NCBI GenBank assembly: GCA_002011745.1
Contig: MTOU01000012.1
Coordinates: forward strand, 57,732-121,731
Source of the DNA: Nitrospirae bacterium JdFR-85
GTDB lineage: Bacteria; Nitrospirota; Thermodesulfovibrionia; Thermodesulfovibrionales; JdFR-85
DNA: 64,000 nt
Reading direction: 5' to 3'
The translations under genes were made by a program, and so were the position numbers. Below the pieces are notes generated by a model. That model saw only the letters and a list, made by a program, of their open reading frames with translations. It did not search any database and was not told the origin of the DNA. The number at the start of each line of letters is the position of its first letter. The stretch's first letter is position 1. Shown piece after piece: positions 3,631 to 32,914 of this stretch.

Positions 3631-6600
3631 GTGTTCTTGAAAAGTCTTACCACAAGGCTCGTCTTGGTAGCTGCACTTCTTAGTATTCTGGTGTTAACTG
3701 TTGTCTTTTTTTATGACTACAGGAAACACTGGAGAATCATGGAGAATACTCTCAGCCACTTATTAGAAAAAAATTTAATGTTAATAGAAAAGATTGTTAA
3801 AACAAAAATAGTTGAACATAATATTGAGGCTCTTAGAGATGAACTAAAAATGTTTAAAGATGTAGGACTTTTGAAAGGAATTTATATTTTTGATAACACA
3901 GGGAGTGTCTGGTTTGCTGATAAGGAATTAGAAGGCTTTCTTCCTCCTTTCTTGTCCGGTGTCTGTGTAGAATGTCATGGAGCTATCTCTGAAAATATTC
4001 CTACAATTGCAACTGTTGAGTTTAAGAGGACATCAGAATGTATGGGTTGTCATGGTGAAGGAGATACCCCTATTGGCTATGCCACATTACTTATTGAACC
4101 TCCTCCAATGTTAAATCTGAGTGTAACTACGGAAAGAGGCCTCTTGATAGGATATATAGGAATCGTTTTTATATTTATAATTTTTGGTGGCTATATCCAT
4201 TATTCGATAAATAGACGTCTTAGGAGATTGAGGAATGGGGTTTTAGCCTTTGATCCTAACAAATGGGAACCTTTTAAAAGAATGGGAAGGGACGAGATTG
4301 GTGAGATTGCATGGTCTTTCAACAGGATGGCAGAAAGGATGATACAGCATGAGAAGGCTATTGAAGAATCCAGAGCATATCTCAAGAATCTGTTTGATAA
4401 TATCACTGATATGGTAGTTGTGATTGATCGTGAATATACCATCCAGTATATAAATGAGCCTACCTTAAGATATCTTGGTAAATCAGAAGATGAAGTGCTG
4501 GGCAATAAATGTTACAGAGTATTTCATAATGCTGAAAAACCCTGTTCTGAGACAGTTCCTGAAGAACACTGTGGTCTAAAAGAAGCATTCTCAGGCAAAC
4601 AGGTACATACTGTGCATATGCATCATACCAAGGCAGGGAAAAGATGCTATTCTGTTAGATATCTACCTTTTTACATGAATGAAGAAATACCTTATGTGAT
4701 AGAAATTGCCACTGATATTACAGAGTCTCAGAGACTACAGAAAGAGATAAAGGTCTTTAAGGCCTATGCAGAGGAGCTTCAAGGGATAAATACGCGTGAG
4801 GAATTTTTTGAAAGACTTGTAAGACTTGGAATAGAGGTTCTGGAAGCGGATGTATCCCTTGCTTCTCTTATAAATGGGCATAATGGTAAAATGCGTTTTC
4901 ATAAAAAACTTACAGATAAGAGCAATGTTGAGAGAGACCTGAGAAGTATAGACCCTGAAGAGTGTATCTCAGTGTTTGGTATAAAATCAGGGAAGCCTTT
5001 TGTGTCTGAAAGCCTTGAGGGTTTTCCTCAAAGTAGATTAAAAGAGGTTCTGAAGAGTTTAGGATTTGAGACCTTGGTATCTATCCCTCTGAAAAGAACA
5101 GGGAAAGTGGTAGGAGTGTATAATCTTCTTTACAAAAAGAGAGGTATATTTAGAGAATCGGATAAAGAGTTTTTGAATCTTCTCACTGAAAATATAAACA
5201 CTGTAGCAGACAGAGTATGCCATTATGAAGACCTTAAATCCCAGACCGAGAGGCTTAATGCATTAATCAATACTGTGGAAGTGCTTGCTGGTTCTGTAGA
5301 GCTGGATGATGTACTCAAGGCAATAGTATCCTCCACTGTAAAAATTCTTAAGCCCGATGTGGCTACTGTGATGCTCTATAATGATGAAAGAAATATATTG
5401 ATCCCTGTTTCTGTCCACGGGATTGAAAAGGCAGTTTATGATGGATTGTATATACATCTTGATAAGATCGACTTAAAGTTTGACCCTAAAGACAATACTT
5501 TCAGCAGTCTAAATATATTCAATGAGAAAAAGTGGGCACCATTTCATGGTATTGCTTCCATGATAGAGATGAAGTCTTTTTATGCAAGATGCTTTTTTAA
5601 TAAGAAGGGTGAAAAGATGGGGGTATTAATTGGTTTGTGGAAGGAAGAACATCTACCAAGTTTTGACGAGATAGAACTATTTAATGCATTCAGTTCCTTT
5701 GCAGAGGTTGCCCTTGAGAAGGCTATTCTCATGAAACAGATCATCACAGAGCAGAAGCACTGGGAGGAGACCTTTAATGCCTTTTCTGATCCTCTCTTTA
5801 TTACTGATAGAGAATTCAAAATCCTCAAGGCCAATAAAGCCTTCTATGAGTTTTGTAAGATTAAAGAAGATATTACAGACAAGAAATGCTATGAGATTGT
5901 TCACAAACAGGAAAACCCGCTGAAAGACTGTCCCCATTTTGAGACTATAGAGAAAGGAGAGACTGCTATACGTGAGATGGAAGATCGAGCAAGGGGGATA
6001 ACCGTTCTTTACACTACCTCACCTATCTATGGTGAGACAGGGGAGGTTCAGAGCATAATTCATAATATCAAAGACATTACATTTGTAAAGAAGATGGAAA
6101 GAGAAAGAGAAGAACTCCATCAGCAACTCCTTCATGCCCAGAAGATGGAATCTATTGGTACACTCACCGGTGGCATAGCCCATGACTTTAATAATATACT
6201 TACTGCAATAATGGGTCATGCAGAGCTTGCAAGGCTGAAATCAAGAGACTCTTCCATAGAAGGTAATCTTGAGATGATAATAAGTGCTGCTGAAAGGGCA
6301 AAGGAGTTTACAACACAGCTACTTCTGTTTGGCAAAAAGGCTCCAATGGACAGAAGGGTTTCTGACCTGAATCATGTTATTGAAGAGTCGTTGAGGTTGC
6401 TTAAAAGAATCATAGGAGAGGATATTGTAGTGGAATTTAAAAAGGGAGAAGAACCTCTTTATGTTAATCTTGACAGAGCGCAATTTACACAGGTATTGAT
6501 GAATCTATGTGTTAATGCAAGGGATGCTATGCCAGAAGGAGGTAGTCTAATAATAGAGACAGGCAGAAGGATTGTTCAGAGACCTCCATATGGGAAACGG

Positions 6601-7257
6601 AGTGGCGAATATATAATTTTAAAAGTCTCAGATACGGGCGTTGGAATACCAGAAGACATAAGAGACAGAATATTTGAGCCATTCTTTACCACAAAACCAG
6701 AAGGCAAAGGAACAGGACTTGGCCTGAGTGTGGTTTACTCAGTGGTGGACGCCCATGATGGTTTTATAGAGGTGTACTCAACTGTGGGTAAGGGAAGTAT
6801 TTTTGAGATATATCTACCAGGAGTTGATTTCTATGGAACGATTGCTGAGAAGGTGATAAAAGAGGAAACCCTTCCAAGTGGTAATGAACATGTTCTTCTT
6901 GTGGATGACGAGGAGATGATAAGAGAAACAGGGGCAACTATTCTGAAGACTCTGGGTTATAGAGTAACAGTTGCCTCCTCTGGTGAAGAGGCATTACAGT
7001 TGTTCAAAGCAGACCCTGAAGAATATGATATTGTAATCTCTGACCTCATCATGCCAGGCATAAGAGGTTCAGAACTTTATGACGAGATAAGAAAGATCAA
7101 GGATGTACCCTTTGTTCTTATTACAGGATATGGAAGACACTTTCTAAAGGATGCCCAGATGTATAGTTTTAATGGAATAATAGAGAAACCTTTTAATGTA
7201 AAAGAGCTTGCCTACAGGTTGAGATATATACTCGATAGAATTAAAAGAAAATCGTAA
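3631..7257 (+). CDS. Hybrid sensor histidine kinase: periplasmic di-heme c domain, HAMP, PAS, 2 GAF, PAS, HisKA/HATPase, REC
   Basis: Two TMs flank CVECH and CMGCH; [17 protein letters not shown]; H-box GGIAHDFNN; NARDA, DTGVG, FFTTK, GTGLGL; C-terminal REC (VDDE, SDLIMP, KPF). Confidence 0.92.
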
Positions 7258-7261
7258 GTTT

Positions 7262-8032
7262 TTATTGTTTCTTATCTATGAGTTTTATTATCTGTTCTGC
7301 CTTTATTGCGCCGTTTACTACTCTTCCATCCCCAAATACAATAGTAGGTGTACTTCTGATTCCAAGCCTTTCGGCAAGCTTTATATTTTTGTCAATTGCA
7401 TCTGTCTCACAGTCTGGCTCTGGAATAGACTTCTTTGCATATACATCTTCAAGGAGCTTTATCGCCTTTTCATTTGATTTCCGCTTTTCACAAACTATTG
7501 TCTTTGATTTACTGTACGCCTGAGGATGAATGCTTGTGAGGGGAAACATTTTTAGATAGAAAACAATATCATCTCTCATCTCTAAAACCCTCTTCATCTC
7601 CTGATGAAGTTTAGCACAGTAAGGTCAGTCAGGGTCATCAAAGACAATTACCTTGTGCTTTGCCTCTGGATTGCCCATTACAAGGGCATCATCAAGAGGA
7701 ATTTGGGATACGTCTATTTTGTTTATCTCATTATATTTTTCCTTTGTAATATTTTTACGTGTCTGGAGATCGATTATTGAGCCGAGGATGATATTTTTTC
7801 TCTTGTCATCCATATAGACAATAGACTTTCTCCCACTTACCTCAACCACTATCTCCCATAATCCATCAACTACTGCCTTCTCTACTGACAACACCTTTGC
7901 ACCAGGTACAAGTTTCTGCAGTACCTTTGTCGCCTCTTCGACAGTGAGATTATTTGCAGAATTAGTAGAGCTTACTCCATAAAAACCAAAAATTAAAATA
8001 ACAAATAAAAAAATAGCTAATTTTCTCTTCAT
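7262..8032 (-). CDS. dsbC: Selenocysteine-containing DsbC/DsbG-family thiol:disulfide isomerase (UPYC active site; in-frame TGA at 7625-7627)
   Basis: ORFs 7625..8080 and 7262..7597 share a frame and read VFDDPD-TGA-PYCAKLHQEMKR; signal peptide, DsbC N-terminal domain and GIRSTPT cis-Pro loop present; SD AGGAG before ATG 8032. Confidence 0.88.
7582..7614 (-). promoter_or_regulatory. Bacterial SECIS-like hairpin
   Basis: mRNA CUAAA-CUUCAUC-AGGA-GAUGAAG-AGGGU-UUUAG: perfect 7-bp apical stem, G-containing loop starting 22 nt after the UGA, extra lower stem. Confidence 0.7.
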
Positions 8033-8104
8033 TCGGTTTCTCCTTTCAGTTTTAATTTTACTAAAAATAAAGTCTAACATTCAAATATGAAAAAAATATG
8101 AATT

Positions 8105-31003: not shown

Positions 31004-32914
31004 TTAAGGTTGTTTGGATTTTAAAAAATTGGGATGGGGTTTCCTCACATCTTCTACACGGAGGGTAATTTTATTTGAATCGAGGTGTTCAAGAAATGGT
31101 AGGGCATACTTACGGCTTGTGTTGAGAAGATCTCTGAACTCACCCACTGTCATTCTATCTTTTTTCTGGAAGAAGTTTCTCAATCTCCGGAGCATTTCGT
31201 CGTAATGCTCCTTAGTAAGATAGAAGGTGTCATTTATCCTCTTAAGCACACCTTCTTCAACCATAAGTTTCAGGATATCGTCTACTTCACCTGTTTTGAG
31301 GGAAAAATACTCTGCCAGTTCCTCCCTGGAGAGAGGTTGATATGCCCTTTCAGTAAGTAGTCTAAGTGTTTCATCTCTTATCTGTCTATATCGGTCTGTC
31401 AGGGCTACTTTGAAATCTCTTAAGCGGATTATATCCTTTTCAACCTCTGTTTCTTGTGTAAGAGAGAGAATTCCATCAAATATAGAGTGCGGGAGTCCGA
31501 AGAGTGACCTAAGGGTCTCTTTCTCCATTCCACTTTTGAGGGGATTGTTTTTGTGAAATCTTCTGAGGGTGTCAAGGATTTTTACTTTCAGTTTTTCATA
31601 TATCTCTCTGTGTATGAGACTGCCATCATACTGAAGAATAACCCTTTCATTTTTTAAATTATCAATAGCCTTCTCTGTGTCTTTAGTTGTGGTATTGATC
31701 CATCCCTTCAGAGTATTTAAAGGTATACCCTTAAGGCCTGATTTAAGCACCTTCATAGAGAGCTTCTCTTTAAGGTTCCCTTTTTCATACACAATAAGGT
31801 CTTCTATACCCTCCTTTTTCTTTCTCTTTTTAGGATAAGGGTCGAGTATGATCCCTCCTCCGATTGTTTCAACAGGTGAGAACCTTCTTATCACAAATCT
31901 ATCACCCGCTGAGGCCACCACAGGTGACTGAAGCCGGATCTGTGCATAACAGGTCTCACCAGGTTTCAGAGTTTCTTTATCATAGAGTATTACTCTTCCC
32001 ACAGTCTCGGATGTATAGAGATGGAAATGAACAGGAGATTTGTTCTTGAGCTCTGGAGCATCCCTGAGCAGATGGAGTTTTACATCTACCGCCTGAGTAG
32101 GTCTGAAAATATCTGGTGTAAGGACCATATCGCCCCTTTTAAGGTCCTCTTTCTCCACTGCATGAAGGTTTATAGCCACTCTCTGACCGGCAATAGCATA
32201 CTTTATAGGAGTTCCATGGCTCTGGAGAGTTCTTGCCTTAGTATGAATTCCTGCTGGAAGTATCTCCACTTTGTCATCCACTGCCAGTCTACCTGAAACA
32301 GCAGTTCCTGTAACCACTGTCCCGAATCCCTTTAGTGTGAATACCCTGTCTATAGGAAGCCTAAACACTCCTTCCGCAGGCTTTGTGCTGACTTTTAAGG
32401 AGTATTCATGTATTTTATCTTTTAGAAGAGGTATATTCTCACCTGTTTTTGATGACACAGGCAGTATATCAGCACCTTCGAGAAAAGTCCCCTTTATGAA
32501 CTCTTTTATGTCATCTATAACTAATTGAAGCCATTCCTTGTCCACAAGGTCTATTTTTGTAACTACCACAATACCGGATTTTATCCCCAGAAGATTGCAT
32601 ATAGCGAGGTGTTCCTTTGTCTGTGGCATTACTCCCTCATCTGCTGCAACAACCAAAAGAAGTAGATCAATTCCTCCTGCTCCTGCAAGCATGTTTTTAA
32701 CAAGTCTCTCATGGCCTGGTACATCAACAATACCTACCACTATACCATCAGAATATCGCAGATAGGCAAACCCGAGATCAATTGTTATTCCTCGTTCCTT
32801 CTCCTCTTTAAGGCGGTCAGGGTCAATACCTGTTAGGGCCTTTACAAGGGCACTTTTGCCATGATCTATATGGCCCGCTGTACCAAGAATTATATATTTC
32901 TCTGTAGAAGGCAT
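31004..32914 (-). CDS. selB: Selenocysteine-specific elongation factor
   Basis: [24 protein letters not shown]-terminal winged helices ending in [13 protein letters not shown]. Confidence 0.97.

Follow-up and report, generated by a model that had tools for sequence, protein, structure and literature searches.

Does the in-frame TGA that divides a DsbC-like coding region in the window (the whole 64,000-nucleotide stretch of DNA analysed here) end a short protein, or does it specify an amino acid within a longer one? Translation of the region with table 11 gives two open reading frames (ORFs) lying in the same frame, at 8080/8032..7625 and 7597..7262. Reading TGA as U instead yields a single frame of 256 residues that extends from the ATG at 8032 to the TAA at 7264..7262 and contains exactly one TGA. 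An initial annotation of this DNA had described two ORFs that share a frame, with a TGA at the first cysteine of a CxxC motif as the sole break between them, and had predicted a 256-amino-acid product that gene callers would split; the frames found here agree on both points. The strand, on which that annotation was silent, is the minus strand. Comparisons with homologous sequences give strong grounds for predicting that this is one gene for an exported DsbC-like thiol:disulfide oxidoreductase, and that the UGA at codon 136 is read as selenocysteine (Sec).

The reading frame and its UGA codon

The gene occupies positions 7262..8032 (-) and comprises 256 codons followed by the TAA stop, with homologues aligning over residues 1-256 of its product. 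Codon 136, the UGA at 7625..7627 (-), is proposed to encode Sec as the first residue of a U-P-Y-C redox motif (7627..7616) in the context VIVFDDPD-U-PYC-AKLHQEMK. A Shine-Dalgarno sequence, AAGGAG, can be read from the sequence at 8040..8045 (-), 7 nucleotides upstream of the ATG at 8032..8030, and for this reason the start at 8032 is favoured over the upstream ATG at 8080.

A TGA at this codon might simply be an error of sequencing or assembly, or a recent nonsense mutation in one genome, and such a view finds some footing in the fact that the genome is a 47-contig draft and that the sequencing runs holding the stretch are metagenomes. However, a contig from a different study shows no differing letter over positions 7000-7967, TGA included (word depth 16), TGA recurs in dozens of independently assembled genomes, and within this genome a second paralogue also carries it. 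No RNA run was among the sequencing runs listed for the stretch. The identical contig from another study, together with the recurrence of TGA in many assemblies, excludes the sequencing error for which a check had been proposed, and the probability that we give to error or private mutation as a whole is negligible. A general reassignment of TGA was considered separately and is ruled out, as selA, selB and neighbouring genes are complete under table 11.

The genes of the neighbourhood include ferrochelatase, a menaquinone-biosynthesis gene, LemA and a TPM-domain gene; a functional clue was sought in this setting and none was found. Convergent with the predicted selenoprotein gene, and ending 5 nucleotides from its stop, lies an ORF of 1208 amino acids (3631-7257, +). 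By translation, this ORF resembles a hybrid sensor histidine kinase whose C-terminus holds a receiver; CxxCH-like motifs (CVECHG and CMGCHG) are found in its N-terminal sensor part.

TGA/Cys alternation and the downstream hairpin

Homologues of this gene are widespread among related genomes, being present in 58 of the 61 examined. Matches of at least 183 bits divide into 49 of 87 with exactly one TGA and 38 of 87 without any (hand count). From 30 loci of related genomes came 31 homologues, 22 with U-x-x-C and 9 with C-x-x-C, differing at the same codon. A scan of public contigs covered 80 loci. Active sites were recovered from 79 of them, 80 in all, with two from L089 and, under the pattern used, none from L126; TGA is present at this codon in 45 sites and a cysteine codon (TGY) in 35. 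Alternation of Cys and TGA, which the initial annotation had suggested looking for, is thus seen at the exact codon in both sets (22 U to 9 C and 45 U to 35 C), although the two sets overlap in species and are not independent samples. Once duplicates had been removed, 58 different stretches of the TGA form and 38 of the Cys form remained. Decay of the downstream half in relatives with TGA had also been raised as a concern, and none was seen: past the TGA the frame remains open for ~112-120 codons, and the alignments reach residue 252-256 of 256.

These counts bear directly on the alternative that TGA is a genuine stop. The locus would then be a split gene or pseudogene, giving a 135-residue fragment made up of the signal peptide and DsbC_N domain; a second protein, the C-terminal 111 residues, might also be made from ATG 7597. 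Two ORFs are indeed what table 11 produces, and the full-length forms in public gene sets all have Cys, with CPxC in 11 of the 11 homologues fetched. Yet TGA occupies this codon in over half of the public-contig sites, the downstream half is conserved in frame, the redox motif is whole in neither fragment, and the internal ATG falls within the hairpin described below, where it is a mechanical choice of the ORF lister. The finding that every full-length public homologue fetched is a Cys form suggests instead that Sec forms are probably called as fragments or pseudogenes. We judge a genuine stop to be very improbable; a truncated by-product might be made under selenium starvation beside the full-length protein.

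The proposed Sec codon is followed by a putative SECIS minihelix at 7592..7609 (-). This element, 18 nucleotides in all, has a 7-base-pair stem (CUUCAUC/GAUGAAG) and an AGGA loop, and it begins 15 nucleotides after the UGA, so that 22 nucleotides separate the UGA from the loop. The initial annotation had pointed out a perfect 7-base-pair hairpin with its loop 22 nucleotides downstream of the TGA, and our measurements return the same stem and distance. In the bacterial SECIS (bSECIS) consensus, a stem-loop lies shortly 3′ of the UGA and has a G in a small apical loop (PMC1088965, Fig. 3 legend), an arrangement that is matched here by the 7-base-pair stem and NGGN loop 15 nucleotides past the UGA. 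Moreover, two formate-dehydrogenase-alpha-like (FdhA-like) genes of the same genome have a UGA followed by GG-loop hairpins 15 and 19 nucleotides from the U of the UGA. The corresponding distance of 18 nucleotides in the window gene therefore fits the spacing of this organism's SECIS elements.

By energy the hairpin is unremarkable. The 71-nucleotide region that was folded gives z = -0.77 relative to shuffled sequences, and 39 of the 200 shuffles reach an equal or better energy. The case for the hairpin beyond chance comes from the comparison of homologues. An Rfam scan of positions 7200-8100 at E <= 10 returned chance matches only and no SECIS family.

Such a comparison reveals a tight coupling between the codon and the hairpin. 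Among the public contigs, each of the 45 TGA forms has a stem paired at 7/7 positions and placed at the same offset, whereas just 3 of the 35 Cys forms retain a perfect stem, and this is a further argument against a genuine stop. The stems of the 45 TGA forms are CTTCATC/GATGAAG in 42 cases and the compensatory CTTCACC/GGTGAAG in 3, and their loops are AGGA (41), CGGA (2), TGGA (1) and AGGT (1), the GG being retained always. The compensatory change from U-A to C-G occurs in these three loci and in the second paralogue of the same genome; on the tree described below, two of the loci are sister rows, and the starred 13-row clade to which they belong also contains the third. Since the hairpin is nearly invariant over the 58 distinct TGA-form sequences, evidence of genuine covariation is confined to a single kind of double change.

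Third codon positions provide a separate measure of constraint. Across codons +5..+11, which form the hairpin, third-position entropy is 0-0.3 bit in the 58 distinct TGA forms, versus 0.4-1.9 bit in most of their flanking codons. The same codons in the 38 distinct Cys forms show 0.8-1.7 bit. As judged from these alignments, the synonymous freeze in the hairpin, seen in TGA forms only, reflects selection on the RNA and not on the peptide. Selection at the RNA level would also explain why the TGA forms have E-M-K at a place where Cys forms mostly have E-L-K or E-I-K. At 18 nucleotides, the element appears to be an unusually clean minimal SECIS, and it could make a compact test case for how SelB recognises its RNA target in Nitrospirota.

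Selenocysteine machinery and the distribution of Sec forms

The genome (2.33 Mb in 47 contigs, rated 100% complete) contains the components expected for Sec insertion. The gene for the Sec-specific elongation factor SelB is in the window at 31058..32893 (-), where it matches TIGR00475 with 395 bits versus a cut-off of 242 and has no internal stop; a location of 31004-32914 given previously agrees with this profile match. Elsewhere in the genome are selA (621 bits), a tRNA-Sec with anticodon TCA, and selD (325 bits; G000:C13:6948-7868, -), which has one in-frame TGA at G-U-A-A-K. Thus, selA, selC and selD, whose presence the initial annotation had left to be checked, were all found, with selD itself being Sec-containing.

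At least six genes in this 2.3-Mb genome appear to encode Sec: the two FdhA-like genes, selD, two DsbC-like genes and rtcB. The FdhA-like genes read ..CARY-U-HSATV.. and ..QARI-U-HSATV.., with TGA positions at G000:C5 ~28437 (+) and G000:C12 ~29652 (+), and each TGA is followed by one of the GG-loop hairpins already mentioned. The rtcB gene, for an RNA ligase (G000:C14:24843-26282, +), has an in-frame TGA at codon 98, the position of a metal-ligand cysteine (GYDIN-U-GVR), and a strong three-tier hairpin (-26.6 kcal/mol) follows. Among 12 related rtcB loci, 7 have TGA and the hairpin with compensatory stem changes, and 5 have Cys and lack the hairpin. The name RtcB is absent from the main text of a 2026 selenoproteome review, and none of the 10 titles listed for RtcB with selenocysteine points to a natural Sec-RtcB; an engineered U98 RtcB has been reported (PMC4150793).

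The history of the DsbC-like family was examined by maximum likelihood: 93 distinct sequences, 56 with U and 37 with C, were placed on a tree with the active-site residue masked. This tree requires no fewer than 19 U/C exchanges, and at least 7 of them are forced by well-supported branches. Repeated exchange of Sec and Cys is a known evolutionary pattern. Cys forms in which the hairpin is intact (L084, L099, L106; L050) look like recent switches from Sec to Cys, to judge from their sequences.

Such frequent exchange lends some plausibility to another explanation, namely that the UGA is recoded to a residue other than Sec. Cys might be inserted on tRNA-Sec when selenium is scarce, or Trp or Cys by near-cognate decoding, and the enzyme would then be mostly a plain CxxC DsbC. 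Partial insertion of Cys is compatible with the sequence, and the many U-to-C switches on the tree indicate that Cys is functionally acceptable. However, the pathway through selenophosphate, SelA and SelB is complete, SelD is itself a selenoprotein, and 45 lineages would gain nothing by keeping UGA and SECIS if the intended residue were Cys. We consider recoding to another residue highly unlikely. The reading of UGA as Sec, put forward in the initial annotation, is favoured by the alternation, the hairpin coupling, the intact downstream half and the Sec machinery alike.

By record label, the 80 active sites from public contigs belong mainly to Nitrospirota, including Thermodesulfovibrionales and Nitrospirales, together with a few Deltaproteobacteria/Thermodesulfobacteriota and one Nitrospinota. 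TGA and the same hairpin are present in three contigs labelled as Deltaproteobacteria or Thermodesulfobacteriota (L105, L107 and L115). When 151 genomes from the phylum of one such deltaproteobacterial genome were searched, 28 had a homologue (E <= 1e-30), and TGA was found in 3 of 33 matches. Set against the 49 of 87 in relatives of the Nitrospirota type, this low frequency suggests that the Sec form is characteristic of the Nitrospirota-type lineage.

The second Sec paralogue of the genome (G000:C14:7681-8487, +; L133:1182-1988) is the one with the compensatory hairpin variant noted above. A sister subfamily, which includes L099, L105, L107 and L115, has a conserved CxxCH (for example D-C-x-K-C-H) just past the signal peptide. 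This motif occurs in 56 of 107 full-length sequences, a count in which duplicates between the locus sets are retained, and in U and Cys forms alike. The second Sec paralogue has this CxxCH, and the window gene lacks it. Judging by its sequence, the CxxCH of the subfamily may be a haem-attachment or metal site. To our knowledge, no DsbC with such a CxxCH has been described.

The predicted enzyme and its relation to known families

The protein begins with a region that looks like a Sec-type signal peptide (residues 1 to ~27; 7952..8032, -), in which MKRK is followed by a hydrophobic stretch and then by ..SSTNSANN, and export would be expected from this pattern. Two domains come next. A DsbC N-terminal (dimerisation) domain covers residues 33-96 (7745..7936, -; PF10411, E 2.5e-12, 46.7 bits vs a cut-off of 25), and a thioredoxin-fold catalytic domain covers residues 123-251 (7280..7666, -), for which the best Pfam match is PF13098 Thioredoxin_2 (E 1.2e-21, 77.4 bits), with PF13462 (E 1e-16) and other weaker thioredoxin-type families overlapping it. 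The NCBIfam models for DsbC (NF008129) and DsbG (NF008657) rank first and second, but the scores of 87 bits against an equivalog cut-off of 215 and of 57 bits against one of 124 are both below the thresholds. The first of these shortfalls indicates that the protein is DsbC-like without being orthologous to DsbC of E. coli.

An AlphaFold model made from a 12-sequence alignment (A1) has a mean pLDDT of 89.5, and its N-terminus is predicted as a helix (residues 3-16) with a low-confidence linker (15-25). The ten best matches of the model in the PDB are all DsbC chains, from Salmonella, E. coli and Yersinia (E 2e-15 to 3e-13, with 24-27% identity over 223-236 aligned columns), and DsbG, DsbP and ScsC follow them. 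Domain content and fold together suggest that the protein would dimerise through its DsbC_N domain.

Three features are invariant among the 12 sequences of A1: the redox pair 136/139, Cys181 with Cys208, and Thr228-Pro229. Cys181 (7492..7490) and Cys208 (7411..7409) form a second conserved pair (spanning 7409..7492, -) within the thioredoxin domain's helical insert. They probably make a structural disulfide, which would be analogous to that of E. coli DsbC. Thr228-Pro229 (7346..7351, -) probably forms the cis-proline loop that faces the active site, a role presumably held in common with other thioredoxin-fold enzymes.

A mechanism can be proposed on this basis. SelB carrying Sec-tRNA(Sec) would dock on the 18-nucleotide minihelix, with its 7-base-pair stem and NGGN loop 15 nucleotides past the UGA, and would hand over Sec once the ribosome gets to the UGA; these steps are proposed because TGA and hairpin are strictly coupled and the Sec machinery is complete. 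The product would be exported by the Sec translocon. In the dimer, the selenolate of Sec136 would take the place of the nucleophilic first Cys of CxxC and attack wrong disulfides in envelope proteins, giving a mixed Se-S bond. By analogy with DsbC chemistry, a substrate thiol would resolve this bond in isomerisation, and Cys139 would do so in reduction. Re-reduction would then come from a membrane electron conduit, and the genome yielded a single candidate for it, a CcdA-type DsbD_TM protein.

That candidate, a short CcdA-like membrane protein of 244 amino acids (G000:C1:33046-33693, -; L131:1447-2181), is the sole DsbD-type protein found. The N-terminal domain of DsbD is the usual direct reductant of DsbC. 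Searches by Pfam families in this genome, which is rated complete, found no DsbD N-terminal domain, DsbB or VKOR. Because DsbB and VKOR were not found, a reductive or isomerising role for the protein is more likely than an oxidising one. The periplasmic thiol-redox network seems to be reduced to CcdA and the Sec-DsbC paralogues.

The same three absences admit a bolder, distinctly speculative reading, to which we give only a small chance of being right. Sec-DsbC paralogues might be the main periplasmic thiol-redox catalysts in such anaerobes, not back-up isomerases, and might for example hold the many CxxCH motifs of multihaem apocytochromes in a reduced state or free of scrambling. The selenolate might confer a very low potential, or might accept electrons straight from bare CcdA, sulfide or polysulfide, and the CxxCH sister subfamily could be a haem-carrying DsbC. 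If this were true, a haem-carrying DsbC would be an undescribed type.

The initial annotation implied more novelty than the literature allows. Proteins of the DsbC/DsbG type with Sec in a UxxC motif have been catalogued as predictions since 2004-2005, and the present gene hence does not found a new category. [quoted passage not shown] A 2006 comparative study places a protein of that name in the anaerobic Deltaproteobacteria Geobacter and Syntrophus, and a "DsbG-like" protein in Symbiobacterium (PMC1794560). The Sargasso Sea paper lists selenoproteins termed "DsbG-like protein" (COG1651, UxxC), "DsbA-like" and "thiol-disulfide isomerase-like" (PMC1088965). Experimental or biochemical work on a Sec-containing protein of the DsbC/DsbG type was sought in the searchable literature and none was found. 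The window gene would add a well-supported case, built on sequence comparison, of Sec in a putatively exported redox enzyme of the Sec-translocon type. It is also a case of mis-annotation in a group where Sec forms make up more than half of the related genes sampled.

By description, the closest catalogued relative is the "thiol:disulfide interchange protein" family, since both belong to PF13098, have UxxC with Sec for the first Cys, and carry a hairpin directly downstream. The catalogue tables for that family include neither a DsbC_N domain nor Nitrospirota, whereas the window protein has DsbC_N. The protein-database matches listed for it, 120 in each of two listings, were unnamed, Nitrospirota or "DsbC family" records, and no named Geobacter or Syntrophus record was among them. 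The "DsbG-like" family (COG1651, PF13462 or NF041057, UxxC; PMC1088965, PMC9312934, with NF041057 per the 2026 review) resembles the window protein in the COG1651 DsbC/DsbG type and in UxxC, and the window protein matches PF13462 and, weakly, the DsbG equivalog. NF041057 was not among its NCBIfam matches at E <= 0.01, and for that reason it probably lies outside the "DsbG-like" family.

Structurally characterized DsbC from E. coli and Salmonella (1eej, 4i5q) offers the nearest architectural parallel. In the comparison with our model, both have DsbC_N and a thioredoxin fold with a helical insert (full-length matches, E 1e-14 to 2e-15, 26-27% identity), and the second conserved Cys pair and the Thr-Pro loop are alike. 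The surrounding redox pathway appears to differ, given that the DsbD N-terminal domain, DsbB and VKOR went undetected in this genome, and the window protein scores below the DsbC equivalog cut-off. At the active site, the predicted difference is the presence of Sec in the window protein where E. coli and Salmonella DsbC have the nucleophilic Cys.
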